Source: an uncultured Bacillales bacterium
GTDB lineage: Bacteria; Bacillota; Bacilli; Tepidibacillales; Tepidibacillaceae
Direction: 5' to 3'
NCBI GenBank assembly: GCA_964568525.1
Contig: CAZMPM010000001.1
Location: 21,307-85,306, forward strand
Length of the DNA: 64,000 nucleotides
This document shows, piece by piece, positions 3,035-46,281 of the stretch (the first letter of the stretch is position 1; every line of letters starts with the position of its first letter). The position numbers and the translations under genes were made by a program. The notes beneath the pieces are model-generated. The model worked only from the letters and a program-made list of their open reading frames with translations. It was not told where the DNA came from and did no database searches.

Positions 3035-4357
3035 ATGGACTTGTTTTCACGAGATATAGGAAAATATGCACCGCTAGCTGATCGCTTACGTCCAAGAACG
3101 ATTGAAGAGTTTATTGGTCAAGAACAGATTATTGGCGAAGGGAAACTGTTGCGCAGGGCAATTGAGGCTGATCAATTAAGCTCTTTAATTCTCTACGGTC
3201 CTTCGGGAACTGGCAAAACCAGTCTTGCTTACGTAATTAGCCAGATGACAAGCAGTAATTTTATTCGGCTAAATGCTGTTAGCACCGGTGTTAAAGAGGT
3301 GCGCGATATTATCAAACAGGCGAGAGATGACCTGCATCTGCATGGACGTAAAACAATCCTTTTTTTAGATGAGATTCATCGTTTTAATAAGGCACAACAG
3401 GATGCGTTACTTCCTTCGGTTGAAAATGGCGAGATTATTCTGATTGGTGCGACAACTGAGAATCCGTATTTTGAAGTGAATTCGGCTTTATTGTCGCGAA
3501 GTAAGATTTTTCGACTGGAACCGCTATCGGAAAAGGATATTGAGGCGGCACTGCTCATGGCGATTAAGGATAAAGAGCGTGGACTAGGTTATTATCAGAT
3601 TGAATTTAGTGATGAAGCGATTGACCATCTAGTTGTTTCGGCAAACGGTGATTTAAGAATCGCTTTAAACGCTCTAGAATTGGCTGTAACGACGACTGAA
3701 AAGGATTCGAGAGGAATTGTTGTAATAGATAAAGAAGTTGCCGTGGACTCGATTCAAAAGCCTGCGATGCGTTATGATACTGGCGATCAGCGCTATGATA
3801 TTATCAGTGCTTTTATCAAATCGATTCGTGGTAGTGAGACCGATGCAGCACTCTACTGGTTGGCGAGAATGATCGAGTCTGGTGAAGATCCTAAATTGGT
3901 GGTTCGCCGATTAATCGTGCACGCTTCAGAAGATATTGGCATGGCTAATCCGCAAGCCCTTGAACAGGCGGTGGCGGCGCTTCATGCATTAAATTTTGTG
4001 GGATTGCCGGAGGCGGGAATTAATATTGCTCAGGCGGTTATTTATTTATGCGAGAGTCCAAAGTCAAACTCAGTAATTACAGCAATTGATCTGGCGTTCC
4101 ATGATGTTCGTTCAGGGTTGTTGGGTGGGGTGCCGATTCATTTGCGGGATGGCAGTTATGCAGGTGCAAAGGAACTCGGACATGGTGTGGACTATAAATA
4201 TCCCCATGATTATCCTAATCATTATGTCGAACAAGATTATTTCCCTGAGGGGATGGAAAAGGCGCAATATTATCAACCGAGTGACCAGGGAATGGAAGAG
4301 AAGCTACAGAAGAGAAGAAGACAGTTTAAAGCAAATCCAGCTGACGATACTGAGTGA
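3035..4357 (+). CDS. rarA: replication-associated recombination protein A (AAA+ ATPase, MgsA/RarA)
   Basis: Walker A GPSGTGKTS, Walker B LFLDEIHRFNK, and the MgsA C-terminal region (DALYWLARM, GEDP). Confidence 0.9.
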   Translation: MDLFSRDIGKYAPLADRLRPRTIEEFIGQEQIIGEGKLLRRAIEADQLSSLILYGPSGTGKTSLAYVISQMTSSNFIRLNAVSTGVKEVRDIIKQARDDLHLHGRKTILFLDEIHRFNKAQQDALLPSVENGEIILIGATTENPYFEVNSALLSRSKIFRLEPLSEKDIEAALLMAIKDKERGLGYYQIEFSDEAIDHLVVSANGDLRIALNALELAVTTTEKDSRGIVVIDKEVAVDSIQKPAMRYDTGDQRYDIISAFIKSIRGSETDAALYWLARMIESGEDPKLVVRRLIVHASEDIGMANPQALEQAVAALHALNFVGLPEAGINIAQAVIYLCESPKSNSVITAIDLAFHDVRSGLLGGVPIHLRDGSYAGAKELGHGVDYKYPHDYPNHYVEQDYFPEGMEKAQYYQPSDQGMEEKLQKRRRQFKANPADDTE

Positions 4358-4370
4358 AAGAGGGAATAGT

Positions 4371-5519
4371 GTGAGTAGATCGATTTATTTAGATAATAGC
4401 GCTACTACTGCAATGCTGCCTGAGGTAATTGCCAAAATGCAGCCTTTTTTTGCTGATCGCTACGGCAATCCGTCAAGCATTCATGGGATTGGGCAAGCCG
4501 TACGTGCGCCGATGGAGGAGGCGCGTATTAGTGTTGCTGCTGCTTTAAAAGTTGATCCGGTTCGGATTATCTTTACTAGCGGCGGTACTGAAAGTAATCA
4601 TTTAGCGGTTATCGGTGCGGCGCTAGCTAATAGGGACGCTGGTCAGGAGATCATTATCTCGCGGATTGAGCATCCAGCAGTAGCTGGTGCGGCTGAGTTT
4701 TTGCGGGAATTGGGATTTACTATTAGATATTTACCAGTAGATCAGACGGGTAAAGTTATACTTGATGAGTTAGTAGCAATGCTGACTAACAAAACGATAC
4801 TTGTCAGCATTATATATGCAAATAATGAGTTTGGCACAATCCAGGATATTACAGTGATTGGGAATTTATTACGCGAGCGGGGGATATTGTTTCACACGGA
4901 TGCGGTGCAGGCGTTTCCCGTTATTGCCATTAATGCTGCTGAATTTCCAGTTGATTTACTGTCAGTGTCCGCGCATAAGCTAAATGGACCCAAGGGTGTC
5001 GGTGCTTTATATGTTAGAAAAGGTGTGAAGCTGCAACCGCTTTTTGTTGGTTTTCAAGAGCGCAAACGACGAGCTGGGACGGAGAATGTAGCGGGGATAA
5101 TTGGATTTGCTGAAGCTTGTCGGATTTTGCTAGAGAATCGTGATGAGAAATTAACACAATTTGTTAAATATCGTAACTACATGCTGGAGCAACTGGCATT
5201 GGAGTTGAAGCCTGAGGAGTACCGGGTTAATGGTCACTTGACTGATGTTGTGCCGAGTATTCTCAATCTTAGCTTTCCTGGCATTGATAGCCATACGATG
5301 ATTACGCTTCTCGATTTAAAAGGGGTAGCAGTTTCTGGCGGTTCAGCCTGTGCAGCGGGTACTACTGACATCTCTAAAGTTATGCAGGCATTAAATTTGC
5401 CGGAGGAAATAGTGAAATCTACGATTCGGATTAGCTATGGTATTCTAAATACTATGGAAGAAGTAGAATTGGGAACGCGTGTACTAGTTAATCTTGTTAA
5501 GTCACGACGTTCAGGTTAG
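4371..5519 (+). CDS. cysteine desulfurase (NifS/IscS class, YrvO-like)
   Basis: GTG at 4371 follows an AGAGGGAA RBS. The sequence reads IYLDNSATT...SAHKLNGPKG (PLP lysine)...SGGSACAAG (active-site Cys). The first 95 codons of the track ORF overlap rarA and are an artefact. Confidence 0.85.
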   Translation: MSRSIYLDNSATTAMLPEVIAKMQPFFADRYGNPSSIHGIGQAVRAPMEEARISVAAALKVDPVRIIFTSGGTESNHLAVIGAALANRDAGQEIIISRIEHPAVAGAAEFLRELGFTIRYLPVDQTGKVILDELVAMLTNKTILVSIIYANNEFGTIQDITVIGNLLRERGILFHTDAVQAFPVIAINAAEFPVDLLSVSAHKLNGPKGVGALYVRKGVKLQPLFVGFQERKRRAGTENVAGIIGFAEACRILLENRDEKLTQFVKYRNYMLEQLALELKPEEYRVNGHLTDVVPSILNLSFPGIDSHTMITLLDLKGVAVSGGSACAAGTTDISKVMQALNLPEEIVKSTIRISYGILNTMEEVELGTRVLVNLVKSRRSG

Positions 5520-5555
5520 TGTATAATATTTACATAAAGTGCTGTGCGGGGCAAG

Positions 5556-5584
5556 TTGACAAGCATTAGACCGCTGGTTATAAT
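5556..5584 (+). promoter_or_regulatory. sigma-A type promoter for alaS
   Basis: TTGACA (5556-5561), an exact 17-nt spacer, then TATAAT (5579-5584), about 50 nt upstream of the alaS start. Confidence 0.6.
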
Positions 5585-5633
5585 AATTTTCAAATTGTTT
5601 TAAATGATAAATTACTAATGGAGGAATCGATTG

Positions 5634-8282
5634 ATGAAAAAGATGAGTTCACAGGAGATAAGAAAGTCCTTTTTAGACTTTTTTGTAGAAAAGGGCCATG
5701 CAATTGAGGCAAGTGCGTCGTTAATTCCTTACGATGACCCATCTTTGCTCTGGATTAACAGTGGCGTTGCTACGCTAAAACCGTATTTTGATGGTCGCGC
5801 GATACCAGCTAATCCGCGGATTGTAAATTCACAAAAATCGATTCGGACAAATGATATAGAGAATGTCGGCAGGACTGCTAGACATCATACTTTTTTTGAG
5901 ATGTTGGGCAATTTCTCGATTGGAGACTACTTTAAAAGAGAAGCAATTATCTGGGCGTGGGAGTATTTAACTGCTGAGCGTTGGTTAGGCTTTGATCCGG
6001 AGAAATTGTCGGTAACAATCCATCCTGATGATGATGAAGCGTATGAAATTTGGCATCAAGAGGTTGGATTACCGAAGGAACGAATTTATAAATTAGCGGG
6101 GAACTTCTGGGACATTGGTGAAGGTCCGAGTGGTCCGAATACGGAAATATTTTATGATCGCGGAGAAAAATACTGTAATCCATCCTGTAGTGAACCTGAT
6201 TCAGAGTGCTATCCTGGTGGCGAGAATGAACGTTATCTAGAAATCTGGAATCTGGTTTTTTCGCAGTTTAATCATAATCCAGATGGCAGCTATACACCGC
6301 TACCGAAAAAGAATATTGATACAGGAATGGGACTTGAACGTCTAGCATCAGTGGTGCAGGATGTTGAAACGAATTATGATACCGATTTATTTGTGCCAAT
6401 TATCGCTGAGGTTGTCTCCCTAGCTGGGGTTAAATACAACGAAAATGGAGAAACGGATATGGCGCTTCGCGTTATTGCGGATCATATTAGAACGATTGTT
6501 TTTGCAGTTGGTGATGGGGCGTTGCCATCTAATGATGGGCGTGGCTATGTAATTCGTCGTCTGCTTCGTCGTGCAGCAAGATATGGCAAAAAGATCGGGA
6601 TTAATCAGCCGTTTTTGTATCGCCTAACCAAGGTGGTCGGAAATATTATGCAAGATTATTATTCGGAAATACTTGTGAAGAGTGATTTTATCGAGCGGGT
6701 AATTAGGGGTGAGGAGGAGCGTTTTTCCGAAACTTTATCTGATGGGCTAGCAATTTTAGAACAGATTGTTGCAAAAACTAAAAAAGAAGTCAAAACACAG
6801 ATTTCAGGTGAGGAGAGCTTTAAGCTATATGATACCTACGGATTTCCGCTTGATCTAACAAAAGACCTGGCAGGGGAGCAAGGACTAAAGGTTGATGAAG
6901 TGGGCTTTAAAGCTGAGATGGAGAAACAGCGCAAGCGTGCACGTGATGCACGTGTTGACGTAGATAGTATGCAGGTTCAAGGTGGAATTATCGGTGAAAT
7001 TGCTGCTGATAGCAAGTTTGTCGGATATTCCGATGTTAATCTACAGACTGTGATTACGCATATTATTGTGGATAATCAAATTGTAAGCGAATTAAAAGCT
7101 GGTGATAAGGCACAGGTTTTGTTAGCAGAGACGCCTTTTTATGCTGAAAGCGGTGGTCAAATTGCTGACCAAGGCCTGATTACAGCCTCAGGTGGTGAAC
7201 TTCAGGTTCTAGATGTAACGAAGGCACCAAATGGCCAGCATTTACACCATGTACAAGCGGTTAGCGGCGTTATTAAAGTTGGCGATCAAGTGACTGCCAA
7301 AATTGATTCGTCAATTCGTAATAGTGTTACCAGAAATCATACGGCGACGCATTTGCTACACAAAGCATTGAGAGAGGTTTTAGGTGAACATGTGCATCAA
7401 GCTGGTTCGTTAGTATCTTATGATAAGCTGAGATTTGACTTCTCGCATTTTAGTGCTGTCACAGCGGACGAGCTTAAACAGATTGAGACAAAAGTAAATA
7501 CGCAAATCTGGAGTAATCTAACGGTTGATGTTAGTATTAAAAATATTAACGAGGCAAAAGAGCTTGGTGCTCTTGCTTTGTTTGGCGAAAAATATGGTGA
7601 TGAGGTTCGCGTTGTAAAAGTAGGCGACTACAGTATGGAGTTATGCGGCGGTTGCCACGTTGGCAACTCATCAGACATCGGACTATTTAAAATTATCAGC
7701 GAGAGCAGTATTGGCGCCGGTGTAAGAAGAATCGAGGCTGTTACTGGACGTTACGCTTATGAATATTTAAATGAACAGAGTGAGTATCTGAGTCAACTGG
7801 CACATGAGCTAAAGAGTAAACCGTTAGCAGTGCAAGAGAAAGTAGCGGGTTTACAACAGACAATAACTGAGCTTAAACGTGAAAATGAGTCTTTAAAAGC
7901 GAAACAGAGTAGTAACGCATCTGTTGATTTACTTGATAAGATTGTGGAGATTGCGGGGATAAAAGTGCTTGCGGCGGAAGTTGCGCCAACTGACATGGGT
8001 ACGGTTCGCAACCTAGTTGATGAGTTAAAGCAAAAGCTGGGTTCAGGAATTGTTTTGATTGCTAGCGCAAATGATGGTAAAATAAATTTGGTAGCCGCTG
8101 TATCTGAGGATTTAGTAAAAGCGGGTTACCACGCAGGCCATCTGGTAGCTAGTGCTGCAAAAGAGGTTGATGGTGGAGGCGGTGGCCGTGCTGATATGGC
8201 GCAGGCCGGTGGTAAGGATCCAACAAGGGTTGCCGCTGCACTTAATAAAGTGGCTGAGTATATAAAATCAGTTACTAAGTAA
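5634..8282 (+). CDS. alaS: alanine--tRNA ligase
   Basis: 882 aa. Class II core motifs are present ([15 protein letters not shown]-like [15 protein letters not shown]), plus the editing-domain HTATHLLH and CGGCHV motifs and a C-terminal DHHA1 GGGGG region. A GGAGG RBS lies 8 nt upstream. Confidence 0.97.
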
Positions 8283-10431: not shown

Positions 10432-11073
10432 TTGATGGGTTTTATTGACTCAGAAGTAAATGAATATTTGCGTGGTTTGCAACCGATTGATAACCAGTTA
10501 TTAACTGAGATTTATCAGTACGGCTTAGCGCAGGAAATACCGATTATGGATCCGATCAGCATGAGACATGTTGCTTTGTTAAGTCAACTTGCTAAACCGA
10601 AGGTAATTATTGAAATAGGAGCAGCGATTGGTTTCTCGGCAATGTGGTTGGCGTTAGCGAATCCTGGTGCGATGGTTCATACAATTGAACGCAATCCAGA
10701 GTTGGTGGAAATTGCCCAAATTAACTTAAAACGAGCTGGGTTGGACAAGCGTGTTATTCTCCATATGGACGAAGCTGTTGAAATTTTACCACAAATGCCG
10801 CGGGCTCAGTTCGTTTTTGTTGATGCTGCAAAGAGGAAGTACCGCGATTTTTATGAGTTGGCGCTCCCCTTGCTTGATGTAGGCGGGTTGATGGTGTTTG
10901 ATAATGTTTTGTTTCGGGGCTACATTGCAAATGCGGCTGAGACAGCTGCGCGACCAATGTTGCGTAAGCTAAGTGAGTTTAATAGATTTTTGGCTGCAGA
11001 TAAGCGTGTAACGACTAATTTTCTAACAGTTGGCGATGGTTTGGCAGTGGCGCAGAAACTGGAGGAACTATAA
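10432..11073 (+). CDS. trmR: class I SAM-dependent O-methyltransferase, YrrM/TrmR-like
   Basis: Caffeoyl-CoA-OMT-type fold (IIEIGAAIGFSA, VFVDAAKRKY, FDNVLFRG). It sits in the B. subtilis yrrM position between mltG and two U32 genes. Confidence 0.7.
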   Translation: MMGFIDSEVNEYLRGLQPIDNQLLTEIYQYGLAQEIPIMDPISMRHVALLSQLAKPKVIIEIGAAIGFSAMWLALANPGAMVHTIERNPELVEIAQINLKRAGLDKRVILHMDEAVEILPQMPRAQFVFVDAAKRKYRDFYELALPLLDVGGLMVFDNVLFRGYIANAAETAARPMLRKLSEFNRFLAADKRVTTNFLTVGDGLAVAQKLEEL

Positions 11074-11918
11074 TGGGAAACAAGAGAAATATTGAGCTAT
11101 TGGTCACGGCTAACAACCTGGAGGAGATAAAAAGCTACGGGGAAGCTGGGGCCGATGCTTTTTTAATTGGTGATGATCAGTTTGCAATCAAGAGCATGGG
11201 ATGTTTTACTCTTGATGCGATTGCCGGTGCGATAAAGCTGGCTAATGAGTGTGGCAAGTCGCTTTATTTGCTTGTAAATGCGCTATATCATAACGATGAG
11301 CTTGCTCAGCTGGAGAAATTTTTATTGACTGTCAGTGAGCTGGGAATTGATGCTGTTCTTTTCGAGGATCCAGCTGTTTACAATATAGTTAAAGAACAGA
11401 ATAGTACGCTGCCACTCCATTTAAGTTCTGGCTCAATGATCACAAGTTCAGGAGTAATAAATTTCTGGGGGAATCGCGGTGTAAGGCGTGCCGAGTTAGC
11501 GCGTGAGCTAACTTTTGAAGAGATTATAGCTGTGCGCGAACATACAAAAATGGAGCTCACTGTTCAGGTTTATGGTAGAACGGCAATTTTCTATTCAAAG
11601 CGCCAGCTAGTAAGCAACTATCTCGAATACATTGATTATGATGCTACAAAAACAACTGCAACTAATAGTGACGAATTTCTATTCTTGCGCGAACATGAGC
11701 GTCCAGAAAGGGCGTTCCCATTGATGGAAGACAAACATGGTACACATTTATTTAGTGATCAGGTAATTGATCATCGAGCGCTAGTCGCTGATTTGATAAA
11801 AGCAGGAATTAATGTTCTGAAAATAGACGGTATGTTTATTGGTAAGGAAGAGATGTTGGCGGTCATTCGAGATATTCGTAAACTGATTGATCAACAACTC
11901 AGAAGTGAAGGGGAATAA
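11073..11918 (+). CDS. peptidase U32 family protein (YrrN/TrhP1-like)
   Basis: ELLVTANNLEE...GADAF...; U32 family N-terminal pattern. Short form, paired with the following long U32 gene. Confidence 0.75.
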   Translation: MGNKRNIELLVTANNLEEIKSYGEAGADAFLIGDDQFAIKSMGCFTLDAIAGAIKLANECGKSLYLLVNALYHNDELAQLEKFLLTVSELGIDAVLFEDPAVYNIVKEQNSTLPLHLSSGSMITSSGVINFWGNRGVRRAELARELTFEEIIAVREHTKMELTVQVYGRTAIFYSKRQLVSNYLEYIDYDATKTTATNSDEFLFLREHERPERAFPLMEDKHGTHLFSDQVIDHRALVADLIKAGINVLKIDGMFIGKEEMLAVIRDIRKLIDQQLRSEGE

Positions 11919-11919
11919 G

Positions 11920-13176
11920 ATGAGTGATTATCACAATAAAAAAGTTGAGCTACTTGCACCAGCTGGAAGTCTTGAGAAGTTGGAATTTGCGATTCACTAT
12001 GGCGCAGATGCGCTCTATCTAGGTGGCGAACAGTTTGGTTTGCGTGAGCGTGCGGGCAACTTCTCTTTTGCGGAGATGGAGCAAGCCGTGGCTTTTTCAC
12101 ATGAACGCGGGGCAAAAGTTTATGTTGCAACCAATATAATTCCGCATGAAAGTGATCTAGTGGAACTGCCCAATTATTTGCGCAGAATTGCTGAGATTGG
12201 TGTAGACGCAATTATCGCCGCCGATCCGGGGGTGATTGAGACATCTATGCATGTGGCACCTAAACTGGACATACATTTAAGCACACAAGCATCTGTTACT
12301 AATTGGCGAACAGTTAAAATGTGGGAAGGGTTGGGTGTTAAGCGGGTGGTTCTGGCTCGCGAACTCTCCTTGGAAGAGATCGCTGAAATAAAAGCACGAA
12401 CTAATGTGGAGATTGAGGTTTTTGTGCATGGGGCAGTCTGTAACTCCTATTCAGGAAGATGCCTGCTATCGAACCATATGACCGATCGCGATGCGAATCG
12501 TGGTGGCTGTGCACAGTCTTGTCGCTGGTATTATGATCTATATCAAGGTCTAAGTGGCGACAGTACAGCGTTGTTTGCAGAGTCTGATGTTCCTTATACG
12601 ATGAGCTCTAAAGACTTATTAATGGTCGACCGTATTGGTGATTTAATCGATTTGGGGGTGGATTCGCTGAAAATTGAGGGCAGAATGAAGAGCATTCACT
12701 ATGTTGCAACAATTACTAGTGCATATCGGCGAGCAATTGATTTGTATAACAGTGGAAAGGCAAATCCAGCTGAACTTTCGCGTTTACGTGCGGAAATTAG
12801 CAAGGCAAGTCATCGCCCGCTTTTTAGAGGATTTTACGATGGGCAGCCCGGAGTGGATGCGCAAATTTACGGTAAAGAGCCAGTATTGCGGAAATATGAT
12901 TTTGTCGGTCAGGTATTAAAGTATGATGCAGGTGCAGGGATAGCTACAGTTCAACAGCGGAATAATTTTAAACTTGGTGACGAGATCGCGTTTTATGGTC
13001 CGCAAACTGACTTTAAGCAGGTTATTGAACAATTAGCTGATAGTGAAGGTAATCCGCTCATGGTAGCTCCGCATCCCTTAGAGATTGTTACGATTAAGGT
13101 TAAAAGTGCTGTGAAACCTTATGATATGCTACGGAAACTTAGTTCACTGATTAGCCATAACGAGTTCACAGAATAG
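11920..13176 (+). CDS. peptidase U32 family protein (YrrO/TrhP2-like)
   Basis: ELLAPAGSLEKL, the Cys-rich EVFVHGAVCNSYSGRCLLS...GGCAQSCRW, and LKIEGRMKS. ATG at 11920 follows a GAAGGGGA RBS. Confidence 0.8.
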   Translation: MSDYHNKKVELLAPAGSLEKLEFAIHYGADALYLGGEQFGLRERAGNFSFAEMEQAVAFSHERGAKVYVATNIIPHESDLVELPNYLRRIAEIGVDAIIAADPGVIETSMHVAPKLDIHLSTQASVTNWRTVKMWEGLGVKRVVLARELSLEEIAEIKARTNVEIEVFVHGAVCNSYSGRCLLSNHMTDRDANRGGCAQSCRWYYDLYQGLSGDSTALFAESDVPYTMSSKDLLMVDRIGDLIDLGVDSLKIEGRMKSIHYVATITSAYRRAIDLYNSGKANPAELSRLRAEISKASHRPLFRGFYDGQPGVDAQIYGKEPVLRKYDFVGQVLKYDAGAGIATVQQRNNFKLGDEIAFYGPQTDFKQVIEQLADSEGNPLMVAPHPLEIVTIKVKSAVKPYDMLRKLSSLISHNEFTE

Positions 13177-34630: not shown

Positions 34631-34706
34631 CGCGGGGTGGAGCAGTTGGCAGCTCGTCGGGCTCATAACCCGGAGGTCGCAGGTTCAAGTCCTGCCCCCG
34701 CAACCA
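34631..34706 (+). tRNA. tRNA-fMet (initiator, anticodon CAT)
   Basis: A cloverleaf folds by hand. It has a C1-A72 mismatch (CGCGGGG...CCCCGCA), three G-C pairs closing the anticodon stem, and an encoded CCA. Confidence 0.9.
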
Positions 34707-34776
34707 AAAATATGCAATTATATTTTTTTTTGCGTAAAATAAATGGCCAGGTAGTGGCAAAAGCGTTTATGCACGT

Positions 34777-34853
34777 GGAGCTGTGGTGTAGAGGCCTAAC
34801 ATGCCTGCCTGTCACGCAGGAGATCGCGGGTTCGAATCCCGTCAGCTCCGCCA
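34777..34853 (+). tRNA. tRNA-Asp (anticodon GTC)
   Basis: GGAGCTG...CAGCTCC acceptor stem, anticodon loop CTGTCAC, T-loop GGTTCGAATCC, and an encoded CCA. Confidence 0.9.
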
Positions 34854-34866
34854 TTAAATTAGCTGC

Positions 34867-34942
<76 letters not shown>

Positions 34943-34962
34943 TTTAGATTTAAATATTGCAA

Positions 34963-35051
34963 GCCGGGGTGGCGGAACTGGCAGACGCACAGGACTTAAA
35001 ATCCTGCGGTAGGTGACTATCGTACCGGTTCGATTCCGGTCCTCGGCACCA
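34963..35051 (+). tRNA. tRNA-Leu (anticodon TAA), class II with long variable arm
   Basis: GCCGGGG/CCTCGGC acceptor stem, anticodon loop CTTAAAA, a long variable arm, 89 nt, and an encoded CCA. Confidence 0.9.
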
Positions 35052-35887: not shown

Positions 35888-35963
35888 GACTCGGTAGCTC
35901 AGTAGGGAGAGCACCATCTTGACAGGGTGGGGGTCGCTGGTTCGAGCCCAGTCCGAGTCACCA
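35888..35963 (+). tRNA. tRNA-Val (anticodon GAC)
   Basis: GACTCGG/CCGAGTC acceptor stem, anticodon loop TTGACAG, T-arm GGTTCGAGCC, and an encoded CCA. Confidence 0.85.
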
Positions 35964-39503: not shown

Positions 39504-40136
39504 ATGAAACATGTTAAACAATTTAATAAAATAGAAATTCGCACCAATGACGAGTTGGTTATCGTTGAGGGTCCGGTTACTTCTGAACAACTGGCGGAGT
39601 ATTATATGGATATGGATTTAACTACGTTTAGACCTGCAAATCAGCAGTATGAGGCGCTTAAAGAGATTGTTGCAAGTCCTGAAGGGCGCTTGATTATCGC
39701 GCGAGTAGATAAGCGAATAATTGGCTACGTAACTTATCACTATCCGGATGAGCTTGAACGCTGGTCGGAAAGTAAGATGGATAATCTACTGGAATTGGGC
39801 GCAATAGAAGTTGTTGCCGACTACCGTAGTTCAGGGATTGCTCAGAACTTGTTAAAGGTTACAATGCTTGATGATGCGATGGAAGACTACATTATAATTG
39901 CGACTAATTATTACTGGCACTGGGATCTGTATGGCACAGGACTAACCGCGGCGGACTACCGTAAAATAATTAGAAAAGTAATGTTAGCTGGAAACCTTGA
40001 ATATATGCCAACAGATGATCCAGATATATGTACGCATTCTGCTAATTGCTTAACTGTACGAATTGGGAGTAGGGTAAGTGATGAGAGTATTCGCCGCTTT
40101 GATGCAATTCGTTTAAAAAATCAATATATGTATTAA
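39504..40136 (+). CDS. acuA: acetoin utilization protein AcuA (GNAT protein acetyltransferase)
   Basis: 210 aa, the same length as B. subtilis AcuA. It is followed by acuB and acuC in the canonical order. Confidence 0.85.
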   Translation: MKHVKQFNKIEIRTNDELVIVEGPVTSEQLAEYYMDMDLTTFRPANQQYEALKEIVASPEGRLIIARVDKRIIGYVTYHYPDELERWSESKMDNLLELGAIEVVADYRSSGIAQNLLKVTMLDDAMEDYIIIATNYYWHWDLYGTGLTAADYRKIIRKVMLAGNLEYMPTDDPDICTHSANCLTVRIGSRVSDESIRRFDAIRLKNQYMY

Positions 40137-40165
40137 TTTAATTTGGAAGGGGTGTCGATATCGAT

Positions 40166-40819
40166 ATGCTGGTTGAAGAAATTATGACGAAAAATGTTGT
40201 AACTTTGAAAAAGGAGGATACTATCAGGCGAGCTCATACTATTTTACAGGAAAATAAATTTCACCATATCCCAATCGTTGATGACAATAATGCAGTGATT
40301 GGCATTATTTCTGACCGAGATATTAGAGATGCGTTACCATCAATCTTTGAAGATGAGTGGAAAGAAGAGGTAATGAATCGGTCGGTAGCAGAGATTATGG
40401 AGGAAGATGTAAAGGTAGTTCACCCGTTTGAATTTGTTGAGGAGATTGCTGCAATTTTCTATGAAAAGGAGATCTCTTGCTTACCTGTAGTAAGTGAAGG
40501 TAACCTCGTGGGGATTGTTACTGACAAGGATATGCTAAATACTTTAATAAATTTAACTGGCGCACTAACACCTAGTTCACAAATTGAAGTGCGGGTCAGG
40601 AACATTCCTGGAACCCTGGCAGGTGTCGTGAATTTGATTGCTGATGAACACTTGCAAATTAATAATGTATTGGTTTACCCTGATCAATCGGATGATAATT
40701 TTAAAATTATTGTTTTAAGGGTACAAACGATGAACCCTTATGCAATAGTTACAAAATTAAAAAATAATGGGCATGAAGTATTGTGGCCCAATTTTCCAGG
40801 AATAAGTGGCAATGTGTGA
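40166..40819 (+). CDS. acuB: AcuB (tandem CBS domains plus ACT domain)
   Basis: Two CBS repeats (HHIPIVDDNN..IGIISDRDI and CLPVVSEGNLVGIVTDKDM) and a C-terminal ACT-like region. Confidence 0.85.
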   Translation: MLVEEIMTKNVVTLKKEDTIRRAHTILQENKFHHIPIVDDNNAVIGIISDRDIRDALPSIFEDEWKEEVMNRSVAEIMEEDVKVVHPFEFVEEIAAIFYEKEISCLPVVSEGNLVGIVTDKDMLNTLINLTGALTPSSQIEVRVRNIPGTLAGVVNLIADEHLQINNVLVYPDQSDDNFKIIVLRVQTMNPYAIVTKLKNNGHEVLWPNFPGISGNV

Positions 40820-41966
40820 AGGCGCATCATTTATTTACTCAGATAAATTTTTATCCTATAAATTTCGTGAAAATCATCCATTTAATCAGGTGCGTATCCA
40901 GATAACATTAGATTTATTGAAAAAAATGAACGCAATCGATGCTAAACAAATTATCGAGCCGAGAGCTGCGACAGATGCTGAGATTGCGCTAATTCATACG
41001 CCAGAGTACATTGATATTGTAAAACGGGCTGGGGCGGGAGAAATAGGCGCTGATGAGACAATGCCATATGGTATTGGCAGTGAAGACACGCCGATTTTTG
41101 AAAATATGCACGAGATTAGTGCGTTAGTCGTTGGCGGCACGTTGACAGCTGTTGAGAGTATAATGGAAGGCGGATTTTGCAGTTCCTTAAATATTGGTGG
41201 CGGTCTTCATCACGGCTTTTCCAATAAAGCTTCTGGATTCTGCATCTATAACGACTCCGCTATTGCAATTAAGTATTTAGTAAGCAAGTACAACTTGCGG
41301 GTCTTATATATTGATACCGATGGTCATCATGGCGATGGCGTTCAAGATGCTTTCTATGATAATAAGCAAGTATGTACGCTTTCAATTCATGAGACGGGGC
41401 GCTACCTGTTTCCGGGGACTGGTCATGTTAACGAACGTGGTAGGGGCGCAGGTTATGGTTATACTTTTAATGTACCGATCGATGCCTTTACTGAGGACGA
41501 GTCTTTTATAAGTGTGTATGAAAAGGCAGCAACTGAGGTAGCGGAGTATTTTCAACCTGACATTATTATCACACAGAATGGTGCTGATTCACACTTCTTG
41601 GATCCGCTTACACACTTAAACACCTCTATTGAAAGTTTTAAGGTAATTCCACGCATAGCACATAAACTTGCTAAGAAGTACTGTGATGGTAGGTGGATAG
41701 CTGTTGGCGGCGGAGGCTATGATATCTGGCGTGTTGTTCCGCGTGCTTGGTCGTTAGTCTGGCTAGAAATGAATGGTCTTTCTAATCTAGCTTGTGGTAA
41801 ACTTCCTGAAGAGTGGGTTAAAAAGTGGCAAGGCTATTCGCCGCTGATTTTGCCGGAGTTCTGGGAAGATAATAAAGAGCTTATTCCGAAGGTGCTAAGA
41901 AAAGCAGAAATCAACGAATTTAACAAAATCACACTTGATCGAGCGCTTTCAATCCTTTACTATTAG
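40812..41966 (+). CDS. acuC: AcuC, histone-deacetylase-family protein deacetylase
   Basis: HDAC motifs GGGLHHG, DTDGHHGDGVQ and GADSH. The start overlaps the acuB stop. Confidence 0.9.
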   Translation: MCEGASFIYSDKFLSYKFRENHPFNQVRIQITLDLLKKMNAIDAKQIIEPRAATDAEIALIHTPEYIDIVKRAGAGEIGADETMPYGIGSEDTPIFENMHEISALVVGGTLTAVESIMEGGFCSSLNIGGGLHHGFSNKASGFCIYNDSAIAIKYLVSKYNLRVLYIDTDGHHGDGVQDAFYDNKQVCTLSIHETGRYLFPGTGHVNERGRGAGYGYTFNVPIDAFTEDESFISVYEKAATEVAEYFQPDIIITQNGADSHFLDPLTHLNTSIESFKVIPRIAHKLAKKYCDGRWIAVGGGGYDIWRVVPRAWSLVWLEMNGLSNLACGKLPEEWVKKWQGYSPLILPEFWEDNKELIPKVLRKAEINEFNKITLDRALSILYY

Positions 41967-42009
41967 GCGTTAATGTGTTATTCTGCCACTGTAAATAAAT
42001 AATTTTTAT

Positions 42010-42047
42010 GACAGTTCGTAACCCTCCTGTCTTTAAACAAAACTAGG
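42010..42047 (+). promoter_or_regulatory. candidate preQ1-I riboswitch aptamer
   Basis: A 5-bp P1 stem GACAG/CUGUC enclosing the 12-nt loop UUCGUAACCCUC, then the A-rich tail UUUAAACAAAACUAGG. The size, the UUC start of the loop, the terminal loop C and the AAAACUAGG tail match my memory of the B. subtilis and Thermoanaerobacter preQ1-I aptamers. It lies directly upstream of que genes. Confidence 0.65.
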
Positions 42048-42082
42048 TAATAGACTACCTGATTTGTGGTGGTCTTTGTTTT

Positions 42083-42108
42083 GGGCGGAGAGTACCGCCC
42101 TTTTTTAT
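42083..42108 (+). terminator. intrinsic terminator forming the riboswitch expression platform
   Basis: GGGCGG-AGAGTA-CCGCCC followed by TTTTTTATTT, 13-22 nt before the first CDS of the operon. Confidence 0.75.
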
Positions 42109-42129
42109 TTAGAAAGCAAGGTGAGTGTA

Positions 42130-43128
42130 TTGAAGAAAATTGGTTTAACAACAACTGCACCAATTGAAGTGCTGATTGCTGCCGGTTATCAACCCGTTGA
42201 CATCAACAACTTGTTTATCGGCTCGGATCAATATCATGAATATATTGAATTTGCGGAACGGGTTGGTTTCCCGAAAAATTCTTGCGCCTGGATCAAAGGG
42301 ATTTATGGCGCTTGTATTGCTAATAATATCAAGGAGATTGTTGGCATAGTTGCAGGGGACTGTTCGAACACTAACGCTCTGCTAACGGTTTTAGACTATC
42401 ATGGTGTTAAAATTCACACTTTTGGCTATCCGTATTCGCATGAGCTTGCTGATGTGCAACTGGCGATTGATAGTTTTATTAAAAAATTTGAAACGACTAT
42501 TGAAGCAACAGAAGAGGTGCGTCAATCACTATTGCCGGTGCGTCGTTTAGCAAAAGAACTGGATCGGATGACATACGAGGATAACCTAATTAGTGGTGGG
42601 GAAAACCACCTGTTACAGCTCTGCATGAGCGACTTTGACGGTGACGTAGCTAAGTATGAGCAATCGCTGTTAGAGTTAAAAAGCGTGGCTGAGAAACGTA
42701 CGCCTTTTACGGAAAAACTTCGTTTGGGATTTATCGGAGTTCCGCCAATGATGGTGGATCTTTACGACTACGTTGAACAGTTTTCGGCGCGATTCGTTTT
42801 TAATGAGGTGCAACGCGAATTTGCTTTTCCACGCATCGAGCGAGCTAAGACAATTTACGAACAATACTATGATTATACTTATCCGTACAGCCTAAATTTT
42901 CGCTTACAGGAAATTAGCAAACAGATTGAACTTCGCAAACTTGATGGTATCATCCATTACACACAGGCTTCCTGTTATCGAGCAATTGACGATATTATTA
43001 TTAAAGAAAAACTAAACATTCCTATTCTAACGATTGAAGGGGATAAGCTAAACCGTCTAGATGCACGGACTAAGCTTAGGATTGAAGCCTTTCTTGATAT
43101 GTTGTTTGATTTGAAGGGGGCGAATTAA
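42130..43128 (+). CDS. 2-hydroxyacyl-CoA dehydratase / benzoyl-CoA reductase family (HgdB-like, HGD-D) Fe-S protein
   Basis: TTG start 5 nt after an AAGGTGAG RBS (alternative GTG at 42121). N-terminal KKIGLTTTAPIEVLIAAGYQPV, with conserved-looking Cys in NSCAWIKG, GDCSNT and QASCYRA. The track ORF N-terminus runs through the terminator and is an artefact. Confidence 0.75.
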   Translation: MKKIGLTTTAPIEVLIAAGYQPVDINNLFIGSDQYHEYIEFAERVGFPKNSCAWIKGIYGACIANNIKEIVGIVAGDCSNTNALLTVLDYHGVKIHTFGYPYSHELADVQLAIDSFIKKFETTIEATEEVRQSLLPVRRLAKELDRMTYEDNLISGGENHLLQLCMSDFDGDVAKYEQSLLELKSVAEKRTPFTEKLRLGFIGVPPMMVDLYDYVEQFSARFVFNEVQREFAFPRIERAKTIYEQYYDYTYPYSLNFRLQEISKQIELRKLDGIIHYTQASCYRAIDDIIIKEKLNIPILTIEGDKLNRLDARTKLRIEAFLDMLFDLKGAN

Positions 43129-43902
43129 ATGCGTATTCTAGGTATTGACCTTGGTAGCAGAGAGGTTAAGCTGGTCCTATTGGTAAATGGCGAAATTACG
43201 AGAAAGTATAAGATTAGTACGATGAAATTTTATCGTGATTACTGTAAACAAGGTAACTGCTTAGCCGTTGACCTTGATAAACTTGATATTGGAAATATTG
43301 ATGCTGCAGTCTCAACGGGTTATGGTCGAAACAATTATGAGTTGGCGGAATTTAAACCAATTAACGAGTTAAAAGCACATGTCTATGGCGTCTTTTACCA
43401 GCTAAAACTTAAGAATTTTATTTTATTGGATATTGGTGGACAGGACGTCAAAGTTGTAAAAGTTGAAAAAGGGATTATTACTGATATGGAGTTAAATGAT
43501 AAATGCGCCGCATCTTCTGGTCGCTATATCGAGAATATGGCTTCGTTGCTGGAGATTCCAATCGAGGAACTAACTAGTCGGTGGGAGAATCCGCTTTTAT
43601 TAAATTCAACTTGTTCAGTATTTTCCGAATCTGAACTTATTGGCAAAATTTCCGAAGGTGTACCAATTGAACGCCTAGCCGCTAGCGTAAACTATTCACT
43701 CTATTGCCGTTTAGAACCGCTACTCAGCAAACTTCCAGGACAGCGGATAGTGGTTACCGGTGGAGTTGCACTAAACCAAGCAATTATTCATTACCTACAG
43801 GCTGACTATGATGAGGTTTTGACAGTTTCGGACCCACAATACAATGGGGCGATCGGCTGTTGCTATTATGGAAAGAAATTTCTCGATAAGGGTGTGATTT
43901 AA
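43129..43902 (+). CDS. BcrAD/BadFG/HgdC-type ATPase (activase for dehydratase/reductase family enzymes)
   Basis: ASKHA-fold motifs ILGIDLGSREVK, STGYGR, DIGGQDVKVV and VTGGVALN, plus the two cluster-bridging Cys motifs NDKCAASSGRYIE and STCSVFSESE. Confidence 0.85.
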   Translation: MRILGIDLGSREVKLVLLVNGEITRKYKISTMKFYRDYCKQGNCLAVDLDKLDIGNIDAAVSTGYGRNNYELAEFKPINELKAHVYGVFYQLKLKNFILLDIGGQDVKVVKVEKGIITDMELNDKCAASSGRYIENMASLLEIPIEELTSRWENPLLLNSTCSVFSESELIGKISEGVPIERLAASVNYSLYCRLEPLLSKLPGQRIVVTGGVALNQAIIHYLQADYDEVLTVSDPQYNGAIGCCYYGKKFLDKGVI

Positions 43903-44322
43903 GTGTATTCATTAAAGATTGAACATAGTTTTGATGGTGCTCATTTCCTAGCTGGTTATCAAGGTAAATGTAGCAATATCCATGGACATCGTTGGCGTGT
44001 TGAGGTAGAGGTCCAGGCTGATAAGTTGATTGAGTCGGGGGAATATGCGGGGATGGTAGTGGATTTTTCAATCTTGAAAGACACACTTCGCAAACTAATT
44101 GAACCGTACGATCATGTTTTGATTATTGAAGCGGGTATGATGCGCGAGGCAACGTTAAACCATTTAATTGCCGATCAATTTGCAATAGCACTAGTTAATT
44201 TTCGACCAACCGCAGAAAATTTTGCGGCACACATTTACCGTGAGTTGAAGCGTGCTGATTTAGCGGTTAAACGAGTAACGATTTATGAGACGCCTACAAA
44301 TAGTGCAATATATGAAGAATAG
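43903..44322 (+). CDS. queD: 6-carboxy-5,6,7,8-tetrahydropterin synthase
   Basis: HSFDGAHFL and CSNIHGHRW (Cys-His-His Zn/catalytic motif). 139 aa. GTG start abuts the upstream stop. Confidence 0.9.
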   Translation: MYSLKIEHSFDGAHFLAGYQGKCSNIHGHRWRVEVEVQADKLIESGEYAGMVVDFSILKDTLRKLIEPYDHVLIIEAGMMREATLNHLIADQFAIALVNFRPTAENFAAHIYRELKRADLAVKRVTIYETPTNSAIYEE

Positions 44323-44335
44323 GTTGTGATTACCA

Positions 44336-45004
44336 ATGTCATATAAAGTCGTTGAAAAGTTTACTAGCATCAATGGCGAGGGACTTAGGGCGGGTGAGCC
44401 GGCTGTTTTTATTCGTTTTGCAGGTTGTAACTTAAATTGTAACTATTGCGATACGAGTTGGGCAAATCAACCGGAAGTTGTTTTCGAACCAATGACTGCA
44501 GAGGGAATCTATAATTACATTATTAATACGGGTCTTAAGAATGTTACATTGACCGGAGGCGAACCACTGCTACAAGAGAATATTACTGATCTGTTATTGT
44601 TATTAGGGAGAAATCCAAATTTGCGGATTGAAATTGAAACAAATGGCAGCATTGATTTAGCTCCGTATTATCGACTTAACATCAAGAACCTAGTTTTTAC
44701 AATGGATTATAAATTGCCGCTCAGCAGGATGGAGCAACAAATGTTAATCAGTAATTTAGATTATTTAAGCGAATTAGATGTTCTAAAGTTTGTTGTTCAG
44801 AATGTGACGGAACTGAAGCACATAGATGAGTTTATTACAAAGTATGATTTGATTGAGAAGACGAATCTGTTGATCAGCCCAGTATATGGTGCAATTAACC
44901 CAGATACAATTGTCCAATATATGTTAGAGCATGGGCAGAACGATCTGAGAATACAATTGCAGTTACACAAAATCATCTGGGGTCAAGAAAGTAGGGGGGT
45001 ATAA
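44336..45004 (+). CDS. queE: 7-carboxy-7-deazaguanine synthase (radical SAM)
   Basis: [29 protein letters not shown] (a CX3CX2C cluster) and LTGGEPLL. Confidence 0.9.
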
Positions 45005-45006
45005 AG

Positions 45007-45597
45007 ATGGCGGTTGATAAAAAGGCAATCGAGGAACATGTTAGGGGGATTTTAATCGCAATGGGTGAAGATCCCAATCGTGAGGGCTTAAAAGAAACAC
45101 CAATGCGTGTGGCAGCAATGTACGAAGAGCGTTTTGAAGGTGTTGGTTATAGCAATCAGGAGATTGCCGAGATGTTTAATGTCACTTTTGAAGATGACTT
45201 AATCGTAGGACACGAAAAAGATATTGTGATTCTTAAAGATATTGAGTTTTTCAGTCACTGTGAGCATCATATTGCTTTGATGTACAATATGAAGGCAACC
45301 GTTGCCTATATTCCGAAAACAAAGGTGATTGGTCTCAGCAAAATTGTTCGCGTAGTTGACATGGTTGGTCGCCGTCTCCAGTTGCAAGAACGAATTGGCT
45401 CCGATATTGCTGAAATAATGCAATTAATAACAGGATCAGAGAATGTTGCGGTTATTATTGAGGGCGAACATGCTTGTATAACGACTAGAGGCATACAAAA
45501 ACCAAATACAAAAACAATTACATCAACTCTTCGCGGTGAATTTGTTACAAATTCTGCTTTAAATAATGAACTAATGATGCTCTGTAATCGAGGATAG
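45007..45597 (+). CDS. folE: GTP cyclohydrolase I
   Basis: [25 protein letters not shown] and [11 protein letters not shown] motifs. Confidence 0.92.
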
Positions 45598-46281
45598 GTG
45601 AGAAAAATGCAGTCAAGTGCGATTGTAGTCTTAAGTGGTGGTCAGGACAGTACTACCTGTCTATTCTGGGCAATGGAGAGTTATAATCAAGTAATTGCGC
45701 TCTCGTTTGATTATGGACAGAAACATCGCATGGAACTGACCCAAGCTCACAAAATCTGCGAGTCAGCAGGAGTTGAACATCATATCCTTTCGCTACCGCT
45801 GCTAAACGAGCTTAGCGCAAACTCACTAACGCGAGCGGAGATTGCTGTTGACACAAGCGAAACTGGCGGTGAGAGGGAGATTAGCGCGAACTTGCCGAGC
45901 TCTTTTGTGGAGGGGCGAAATCTACTGTTTATCAACTACGCGGCGATTTTTGCGAAGGGGCGGTCGGTTAAGGATATCGTGGTTGGGGTTTCGGAGGCGG
46001 ACTATAGTGGTTATCCCGATTGTCGTGCTGATTTCATCAGTTCATTACAAAAGACACTGCGGCTGGCGATGGAGTATGATTTTGTTATTGAGACGCCTCT
46101 GATGATGTTGACCAAAGCAGAGGTTTGGCAATTGGCTGAGCAGTTAGATATTGTGGAGTTAATTATGCATGAAACCGTGACTTGCTATCAGGGCATTGCT
46201 GGCAGTGGCTGCGGTGAGTGCATTGCTTGTAAGCTTAGAAAAAAAGGTTATGATGAATATCTTAGGTTAAAGCGGGGGTAG
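45598..46281 (+). CDS. queC: 7-cyano-7-deazaguanine (preQ0) synthase
   Basis: PP-loop VVLSGGQDSTTC and a C-terminal Zn Cys cluster CYQG...GCGECIACKLR. Alternative ATG at 45607. Confidence 0.92.
   Translation: MRKMQSSAIVVLSGGQDSTTCLFWAMESYNQVIALSFDYGQKHRMELTQAHKICESAGVEHHILSLPLLNELSANSLTRAEIAVDTSETGGEREISANLPSSFVEGRNLLFINYAAIFAKGRSVKDIVVGVSEADYSGYPDCRADFISSLQKTLRLAMEYDFVIETPLMMLTKAEVWQLAEQLDIVELIMHETVTCYQGIAGSGCGECIACKLRKKGYDEYLRLKRG

Follow-up and report, generated by a model that had tools for sequence, protein, structure and literature searches.

How do bacteria that make preQ0 (7-cyano-7-deazaguanine, the product of QueC) convert it to preQ1 when QueF, to our knowledge the only nitrile reductase known in biology, is missing? 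The question is raised by an operon lying within a 64-kb stretch of DNA from an uncultured Bacillales bacterium (contig CAZMPM010000001.1). This stretch is referred to below as the window, and positions are counted within it. The operon consists of six co-directional open reading frames (ORFs) on the + strand which encode, in this order, an iron-sulfur (Fe-S) protein of the HGD-D family, an HgdC/HadI-type activase, QueD, QueE, FolE and QueC. The intergenic gaps measure 0, 0, 13, 2 and 0 nucleotides (nt), and two of the junctions are stop/start abutments. The original prediction, made from the letters of the window, had proposed these six genes with their coordinates, order and gaps of 0 to 13 nt, all of which was confirmed by ORF and profile searches. 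It had also drawn attention to the lack of queF. Indeed, neither tblastn with a QueF probe nor a Pfam survey of ORFs of at least about 120 amino acids (aa), which left out a few shorter or overlapping ORFs, revealed queF, tgt, queA, queG/queH or queT in the window. The data presented here make it nearly certain that the products of the first two genes, hereafter the pair, are involved in queuosine or 7-deazaguanine metabolism. We further consider it probable, if by no great measure, that the pair constitutes a two-component, ATP-dependent, low-potential reductase that replaces QueF in the conversion of preQ0 to preQ1.

One genome per GTDB species was scanned and the best 80 of the 356 carriers found were analysed; counts out of 80 refer to these unless stated otherwise. 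They belong to Clostridiaceae, Peptostreptococcales, Lachnospiraceae, Ruminiclostridium, Tissierellia, Halanaerobiales, Fusobacteriota and uncultured Bacillales. The closest matches to the Fe-S protein of the window come from Bacillales metagenome-assembled genomes (MAGs; 80-82% identity), and carriers include Clostridium botulinum, C. sporogenes and C. tetanomorphum. The activase gene directly follows the Fe-S protein gene in all 80 loci. Queuosine genes come next, on the same strand, in 77 of them (annotation with hidden Markov models), so that the linkage of the HgdB-like gene to que genes, on which the original prediction leaned, is kept in related genomes. The commonest layout after the pair is that of the window, queD-queE-folE-queC (50 loci). 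Seven loci have queD-queE-queC without folE; in five, the order is queC-queD-queE and the Que proteins are only about 35% identical to those of the window. The pair is followed by queC-queT in seven loci, by queT only in three (L050, L053 and L059) and by yhhQ/COG1738 only in one (L042); the identities of QueT and of Vut_1, the Pfam family of YhhQ, were confirmed with Pfam. Four contigs end within the que genes, and in three loci, one of them at a contig end, the pair stands alone.

Six metagenome contigs have the same gene order as well. Since this order recurs in 80 other genomes and in these six contigs, the arrangement is found far more often than expected by chance. Unbiased clustering of the neighbours at the 80 loci uncovered no other family linked to the pair beyond a few related species: only the que genes and queT are conserved. 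Three variants of the QueF pathway have been described (PMC6593275), namely P (de novo synthesis), Ac (QueC plus QueF, salvage of 7-carboxy-7-deazaguanine) and Ao (QueF only, salvage of preQ0). The operon layouts of the pair match these three QueF-containing variants.

A further indication comes from the leader, in which the original prediction had placed a candidate preQ1-I aptamer and a terminator. Alignment to Rfam model RF00522 (PreQ1), a pattern search and comparison of conserved leaders all identify a preQ1-I-type riboswitch aptamer at positions 42006-42052 (+ strand). The match spans model positions 1-45 of 45 and scores 28.3 bits, which is sub-threshold, with an E value of 3.6e-4 (cmscan, 201-nt search). 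In stem P1, GACAG (42010-42014) pairs with CUGUC (42027-42031); UUCGUAACCCUC forms the loop, and the tail, rich in A, finishes in AAAACUAGG. Traits of the preQ1-I class found here are the 5-bp P1, a loop of the form UUCG.AA.CC.UC, a tail that is rich in A and ends with AAAACUA(A/G)G, a 5'-leader position at que or transporter genes and an expression platform. A single instance of the pattern ACAGTT...CTGTC...AAAACTA is present in the window, and none in 100 shuffles. By the criteria of PMC11625349, namely UU after the 5' strand of P1 and UC before its 3' strand, the aptamer looks like type I preQ1-I. The expression platform contains a middle hairpin (AGACUACC...GGUGGUCU; 42052-42075, + strand), identified by a scan for terminator-like elements and in the minimum free energy (MFE) fold, and an intrinsic terminator, GGGCGG-AGAGUA-CCGCCC followed by UUUUUU (42083-42106, + strand), recognized by its six G-C pairs and T-run and likewise present in the MFE fold.

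The pattern search placed the aptamer upstream of the Fe-S protein gene in 76 of the 80 loci and never on the opposite strand. MFE folds of the window leader and of clostridial leaders comprise P1, the middle hairpin and the terminator; an equivalent of the hairpin at 42052-42075 is seen in the clostridial leaders, and most related leaders have a terminator in the same position. The predicted aptamer and terminator withstood scrutiny. Invariant in 28 aligned aptamers are the P1 strands GACAG/CUGUC, the UU after the 5' strand, the UCC before the 3' strand and the tail AAA.AAAACUA.G. P1 (42010-42031 in the window) is constant from Fusobacteriota to Bacillales, although the Rfam consensus shows it as variable. 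The A-rich tail of clostridial leaders has complementarity to a U-rich stretch lying just 5' of the terminator stem. This suggests an antiterminator, the pairing being read from complementarity alone; no such structure was recovered in the MFE folds, which always keep the terminator.

In some loci the operon is split. A group of psychrophilic-type Clostridium genomes (L015, L036, L040, L041, L046 and L056) has a DUF1846 gene of 502 aa, read from the other strand, inserted between the genes for the activase and QueD. In five of these (L015, L040, L041, L046 and L056), separate and near-identical copies of the aptamer precede the pair and queD, so that both operon halves remain under the same control.

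The Fe-S protein gene (hgdB-like; 42130-43128, + strand) encodes a 332-aa product matching PF06050 (E 5e-34), the proposed catalytic component. Its TTG start at 42130 lies 5 nt downstream from a ribosome-binding site, AAGGUGA, read from the sequence at 42118-42124 (+ strand), and yields the N-terminus MKKIGLTTT common to all homologues. These number in the thousands, measure about 333 aa, are 58-82% identical and are known in databases only as "2-hydroxyacyl-CoA dehydratase family protein"; NCBIfam (June 2026) holds no specific model for the protein. Four cysteines, Cys52, Cys62, Cys78 and Cys282 (spacing CX9CX15CX203C), are invariant in the que-linked clade. Invariance of Cys62 is limited to this clade, whereas the other three are at least 90% conserved over the wide family and align with three ligands of DCCP; they are the candidate cluster ligands. 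The AlphaFold2 model of the protein is confident (predicted local distance difference test 96, predicted template modelling score 0.92). In Foldseek, DCCP, HadB/HadC, BzdN/O and MbdO/N are about equally distant from it, with E values from 1e-10 to 1e-12, template modelling (TM) scores of 0.70-0.81 and 13-19% identity. A profile of the clade matched only DCCP in the PDB (46 bits) and, at E<1e-3, 459 of 1.84 billion representatives, no classical HgdA/B or BcrB/C sequence being among them. From these comparisons, the protein forms a separate three-Cys clade outside every characterized dehydratase/reductase clade. The possibility that it belongs within a clade of characterized acyl-CoA dehydratases, which the original prediction had named as an argument against itself, is thereby answered in the negative.

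The 257-aa activase (43129-43902, + strand) is, by sequence, a conventional HgdC/HadI relative of the ATP-dependent electron-transfer type ("archerase"). It scores 157.9 bits with TIGR00241 (cut-off 125.4) and matches PF01869; against HadI (4EHT) and HgdC (1HUX) it scores 130 and 127 bits, respectively. In the alignment to these two proteins, the NDKCAA and STC(S/T)VF motifs line up, and the cluster cysteines Cys126 and Cys162 and the ATPase fold are conserved. Neither the activase nor the Fe-S protein matches the QueF models (PF14489/IPR029500). In one Clostridium MAG (L037), 1.7 kb upstream of its que-linked pair, a 988-aa ORF (3325-6291) includes an ATPase region of HgdC-like type that shares 30% identity with the activase of the window; this ORF may represent an unrelated, fused activase system.

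Is QueF missing from the carriers? A B. subtilis QueF sequence, which scores 118 bits against PF14489, was used as probe. Neither the window nor 86 loci (some 1.2 Mb altogether) gave a tblastn match at E<10, and 82 further metagenome loci gave none either. Whole genomes were looked up in Dataset S3 of PMC11130926, an InterPro-based census of the queuosine pathway by NCBI taxid, of which taxids sorting up to about "117..." were covered. Nine taxids of carriers, representing seven species, fall in this part: Caloranaerobacter azorensis (three taxids), Clostridium homopropionicum, C. tepidiprofundi, C. acetireducens, C. sporogenes PA 3679, Tepidibacter formicigenes and Peptoclostridium litorale. 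All score FolE 1, QueDEC 3, QueF 0, TGT 1, QueA 1 and QueGH 1; the row of Propionigenium maris was visibly incomplete and was discarded. In the carriers of this census part, every known step is covered save that from preQ0 to preQ1. Since makers of preQ0 and consumers of preQ1 are there without QueF, no known enzyme stands between the two compounds. C. sporogenes is scored as a queuosine prototroph in Rodionov 2019 (PMC6593275). The "missing QueF" pattern sits in published census data, and a literature search found no paper that discusses it.

Altogether, these data suggest a mode of action. The HgdC-like protein would form a homodimer whose subunits are bridged by a [4Fe-4S] cluster bound to Cys126 and Cys162. 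Ferredoxin or flavodoxin would reduce it, and its hydrolysis of ATP would drive electrons into the HgdB-like protein. The latter is probably a homodimer as well, each subunit probably holding a [4Fe-4S] cluster on Cys52, Cys78 and Cys282 with one open iron site, where the nitrile of preQ0 would undergo a four-electron reduction to the aminomethyl group of preQ1. The most likely substrate is the free base; preQ0 already in tRNA is less likely. TGT, QueA and QueG/H, encoded elsewhere, would finish queuosine. Binding of preQ1, and more weakly of preQ0, to the leader aptamer would favour the terminator and switch off the whole operon, by the same logic as in B. subtilis queCDEF. In this scheme, the genes present, their conserved linkage, the riboswitch, the lack of QueF in carrier genomes and the fold with its Cys pattern are observed; substrate, product, electron donor, stoichiometry and oligomeric state are what we infer. 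The chemistry of the superfamily lends it plausibility: HGD-D proteins carry out ATP-coupled reductions at very low potential, DCCP reduces acetylene, and the three-Cys [4Fe-4S] cluster of HadBC has one ligand-free iron where the substrate binds (PMC7317905). Because the pair is conserved in hundreds of anaerobes, and because the carriers checked (in the census part covered) lack QueF, it is probably a new enzyme for the step from preQ0 to preQ1. Taken to its full extent, the proposal is that of a biological nitrile reductase which is the second of its kind and has no evolutionary relation to the first: a [4Fe-4S] enzyme of HGD-D/benzoyl-CoA reductase type, energized by an ATP-dependent activase, which would fill the "missing QueF" gap in C. 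botulinum, C. sporogenes and hundreds of anaerobes, and would be the first of its superfamily to have a physiological substrate other than a CoA ester and to serve in the modification of tRNA. To this we give a little better than an even chance.

Distant relatives of the Fe-S protein place these findings in a broader frame. One homologue (P0131, locus L096) shares 42% identity with the window protein; its gene is immediately followed by DUF2065-queA-tgt-yajC, which represents an independent queuosine linkage at another point of the pathway. There are two such queA-tgt-linked homologues (L096, 6001-9402; L130, 5992-8969), neither with an activase gene alongside. A metagenome scan seeded on the P0131 subgroup provided 80 more loci among the matches listed. 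The activase gene adjoins the Fe-S protein gene in 45 of these 80, and queuosine genes are directly adjacent in six: queA-tgt in two, queD-queE in one and queE in three (the homologues following queD-queE or queE are at L141, L148, L161 and L177). About 0.5 immediate que adjacencies would be expected by chance, by a rough estimate of our own. In one more locus, queC is found 4 kb away. The wider family is therefore a housekeeping family tied repeatedly, not always, to different nodes of the queuosine pathway.

Other genes that recur in these metagenome loci (L098-L177) most commonly encode glutamate racemase, a protein with a Germane domain, a membrane protein of 112 aa (immediately upstream), an RtcA-like protein (the next gene downstream in 12 loci) and, at a distance of a few kb, RNase PH and RdgB.

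About eleven distant representatives, of about 590-640 aa, are fusions of the Fe-S protein to the activase, from which it follows that the two work together. The candidates are P0123, P0137, P0149, P0156, P0158, P0159, P0162, P0197, P0200, P0202 and P0207. Pfam confirmed the fusion in P0123, P0137 and P0156, and also in P0187, P0212, P0210 and P0214; P0159 was assigned from its gene table and the others from their length. The P0159 locus (L094) has a second, shorter HGD-D gene just upstream.

A number of points weigh against the pair being a substitute for QueF. QueF carries out the conversion with NADPH alone, and the need for ATP-driven electrons is unexplained. Relatives 30-46% identical to the window Fe-S protein lie mostly outside que operons, and the wider family, whose members share 40-58% identity among themselves, occupies for the most part housekeeping neighbourhoods devoid of que genes; none were found on the contigs of P0186, P0128, P0159 and P0136, and those of P0123, P0133 and P0127 were of insufficient length to be informative. 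P0128 (L091, 1122-2153; 46% identical) is on an archaeal-looking contig with two CetZ tubulin genes, where it sits, without activase, between a metallo-beta-lactamase-fold gene and GAPDH; Archaea use preQ0 directly and need no preQ1. As for the riboswitch, its score is below the Rfam gathering score of 39, so that a gathering-threshold scan misses it: no PreQ1 match at that score was obtained in the whole window or in 13 related loci. The aptamer was detected only by an E-value threshold and the pattern search, and standard annotation will miss riboswitches of this class. The 28 aligned aptamers show no covariation, as P1 never varies.

The census adds to these points. In its part 12, 12 of the 45 genomes with complete QueD/E/C, TGT, QueA and QueG/H have QueF 0; the eight of these 12 that were identified are all Clostridia or Tissierellia. 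About two thirds of the full-pathway Clostridia in this part are without QueF anyway. Since QueF absence is common in Clostridia, its absence from seven out of seven carrier species is suggestive, not decisive. It hinges, moreover, on InterPro detection, and some rows are incomplete. QueF-positive Clostridia in the covered part include C. magnum, C. colicanis, C. cylindrosporum and Asaccharospora irregularis; further QueF-less species are C. acidisoli, C. felsineum, Caminicella sporogenes and Paramaledivibacter caminithermalis. Finally, QueT is said in a review to transport only preQ1 (PMC11625349), hence operons consisting of the pair and queT alone would need another rationale.

This last point is also the mainstay of the best surviving alternative. 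In it, the pair would be a salvage enzyme that produces preQ1 from a compound akin to queuosine and taken up from outside (queuine or some other 7-substituted 7-deazaguanine), which would make it an analogue of the radical-SAM queuine lyase QueL and not of QueF. Operons with the pair and only a transporter gene, be it queT or yhhQ, exist, and with a QueT specific for preQ1, a preQ0 reductase would be unnecessary in the queT-only ones. Yet in about 62 of the 80 genomes the pair stands at the head of operons for de novo preQ0 synthesis, which salvage leaves unexplained along with the queC-queT variant, and preQ0 would be a dead end in the QueF-less carriers that, in the census part covered, have complete QueDEC. 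We regard this alternative as unlikely.

Activases of the HgdC family are electron injectors. The pair might thus be a source of low-potential electrons for some other Fe-S enzyme in queuosine synthesis, such as the clostridial-type QueE, which it would activate by reduction, without itself converting any 7-deazaguanine. All full operons have QueE of the clostridial type, and queE is directly beside the Fe-S protein gene in the four distant loci cited above (L141, L148, L161 and L177). However, pair operons without queE exist (queC-queT, queT only, yhhQ only; 12 loci); the highly conserved 332-aa partner, with a cluster of its own and many invariant polar residues, is typical of a catalytic component; and the QueF gap would stay unfilled. 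Such a function seems quite improbable.

Among the three roles that the original prediction had entertained for the pair, QueF-independent reduction of preQ0 is the one now favoured. The other two, synthesis of a different 7-deazaguanine derivative and reduction of epoxyqueuosine, lose ground in view of the seven QueF-less species, which in the covered part of the census possess QueG/H, TGT and QueA. With these enzymes present, a new epoxyqueuosine reductase would have no gap to fill, and an end product different from queuosine is argued against. The notion of a different derivative, destined for modification of DNA, for a secondary metabolite or for a modified queuosine precursor, draws on preQ0 being a branch point for several products (PMC5699537) and on the family being new. 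It is difficult to reconcile with a regulator that is a preQ1-class aptamer and with carriers whose TGT, QueA and QueG/H need preQ1. Furthermore, no dpdA, tgt paralogue or tailoring gene was found in any of the 80 neighbourhoods, and no homologue on viral contigs. We find it decidedly improbable that the pair makes such a compound.

An epoxyqueuosine reductase acting on tRNA, analogous to QueG/QueH, could account for the two distant homologues directly upstream of queA-tgt (L096 and L130), and removal of the epoxide oxygen does resemble the reductive dehydration chemistry of the superfamily. Since QueG or QueH is already present in all carriers looked up in the census, and the clostridial operons are devoted to precursor synthesis or transport under a free-base sensor, the chances of this role are very slim. 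The least credible idea, to which we attach next to no probability, is that of an ordinary 2-hydroxyacyl-CoA dehydratase or other CoA-ester enzyme lying beside que genes by chance: the database name and the Pfam HGD-D match speak for it, while a single HGD-D gene in place of an alpha/beta pair, identity to HadB/C of only 14-17%, the absence of CoA-transferase or acyl-CoA metabolism genes from all 80 neighbourhoods and a que linkage conserved across phyla, in several layouts and under a preQ1-type riboswitch, speak against it.

The broader statement of the original prediction, that the pair acts on a 7-deazapurine intermediate, is strongly supported by the conserved linkage, two independent que layouts, the transporter-only operons, the separate riboswitch of each half in split operons and the queA-tgt neighbours.

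The remaining genes of the operon are all on the + strand. queD (6-carboxytetrahydropterin synthase; 43903-44322) scores 94.8 bits with TIGR03367 (cut-off 89.25) and matches PF01242; queE (the radical-SAM enzyme 7-carboxy-7-deazaguanine synthase; 44336-45004) is of the clostridial type, with 299 bits in TIGR03963 (cut-off 260); folE (GTP cyclohydrolase I; 45007-45597) matches PF01227 (E 4e-64) and TIGR00063; queC (45598-46281) matches PF06508 (E 5e-77) and TIGR00364 (248 bits, cut-off 150). The queC start may be the ATG at 45607, preferred by gene callers (224-aa calls in identical contigs), in which case the last gap becomes 9 nt. Bacillales-type housekeeping genes (acuABC-like, alaS, mltG, addAB, dcw cluster) surround the operon. 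As its G+C content (0.39-0.43) is close to that of the flanks (0.36-0.40), composition gives no clear signal of horizontal transfer. Directly upstream (39504-41966) is a trio of GNAT, CBS-ACT and histone-deacetylase-family genes, present too in the identical metagenome contigs and arranged like B. subtilis acuABC. Elsewhere, the window has five + strand tRNA genes, four in a tight cluster at 34631-35048 and one further downstream at 35888-35960, and, at 11073-13176, two neighbouring peptidase-U32-family genes beside an O-methyltransferase gene and mltG.

The original prediction knew of no role for the superfamily in queuosine biosynthesis. No paper linking the HGD-D/BcrAD superfamily to queuosine, or reporting a QueF-independent route, was found in the searchable literature to August 2026, and a review of July 2026 (MMBR 2026, PMC13602947) still lists only QueF for the conversion of preQ0 to preQ1. 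As reconstructions list only QueF, anaerobes carrying the pair are scored as incomplete or salvage-dependent. If our proposal is correct, an Fe-S, ATP-driven alternative to QueF would be new enzymology, a nitrogenase-like chemistry on a nucleobase. It would close the queuosine gap in many anaerobes, among them C. botulinum, C. sporogenes and Clostridia of gut and sediment; orphan DCCP-like "archerase" systems would gain their first physiological substrate class outside CoA esters; and thousands of "2-hydroxyacyl-CoA dehydratase" annotations would have to be corrected (5344 clusters at E<1e-50). The function of the pair can be tested directly in tractable hosts.

Several known systems resemble the one described here in part. 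With the leader of B. subtilis queCDEF, that of the window shares a short aptamer, an H-type pseudoknot, and an intrinsic terminator downstream of it, placed over genes for preQ1 synthesis; it differs by a P1 that is invariant across phyla and by having the pair and folE in place of queF. The proposed likeness to QueF itself lies in the reaction and in the position that the pair would take in the queCDEF, QueC plus QueF and QueF-only variants, and is a functional analogy only. QueF is a T-fold enzyme that works through a covalent thioimide and NADPH, with neither metal cluster nor ATP, and has no sequence or fold kinship with the pair.

Related in structure are the dehydratases HgdAB/HgdC and HadBC/HadI. 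They share with the pair a closely related, dedicated ATPase with conserved bridging [4Fe-4S] cysteines (127-130 bits), the fold of the Fe-S partner and the three-Cys pattern that leaves one iron open for the substrate. However, HgdAB and HadBC are heterodimers of two paralogous subunits, whereas the window and all 80 loci have one HGD-D gene; and they act on CoA thioesters in a redox-neutral fashion with a catalytic electron, unlike the net four-electron reduction of a nucleobase nitrile proposed for the pair. Class I benzoyl-CoA reductases (BcrABCD, BzdNOPQ, MbdONPQ) do couple ATP to the net reduction of a difficult substrate and have the same fold (TM 0.70-0.80), but they are made of four different subunits, two of HGD-D type and two ATPases, act on aromatic CoA esters and are only 13-18% identical. 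The window has one gene of each type, and its pair scores far below the cut-offs of the benzoyl-CoA reductase equivalog models.

A two-gene system alike in design is DCCP/DCCP-R of Carboxydothermus hydrogenoformans (CHY_0487/0488; PDB 6ENO, 7YYL). It, too, consists of one Fe-S protein of HGD-D fold and one HgdC-type ATPase, injects electrons at the expense of ATP and reduces small unsaturated molecules rather than CoA esters. The resemblance in fold (TM 0.79), which makes DCCP the top structural match, is accompanied by only 19% identity; the window protein is about 90 residues shorter and scores 35.1 bits with the NCBIfam double_cubane model NF040772, whose cut-off is 350. The seven-Cys motif of DCCP, CX19CX18-19CX29CX166-170CX32-34CX32C, six cysteines of which bind an [8Fe-9S] cluster (PMC7317905), is absent from the window protein, where only three to four cysteines are conserved; such a cluster is therefore not expected in the latter. 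DCCP is without known physiological substrate or pathway context, while the context of the window family is clear. In conclusion, the pair belongs to the activase-dependent, two-component Fe-S type, but in a single-subunit, three-Cys form that operates in a new pathway and probably catalyses a new type of reaction.

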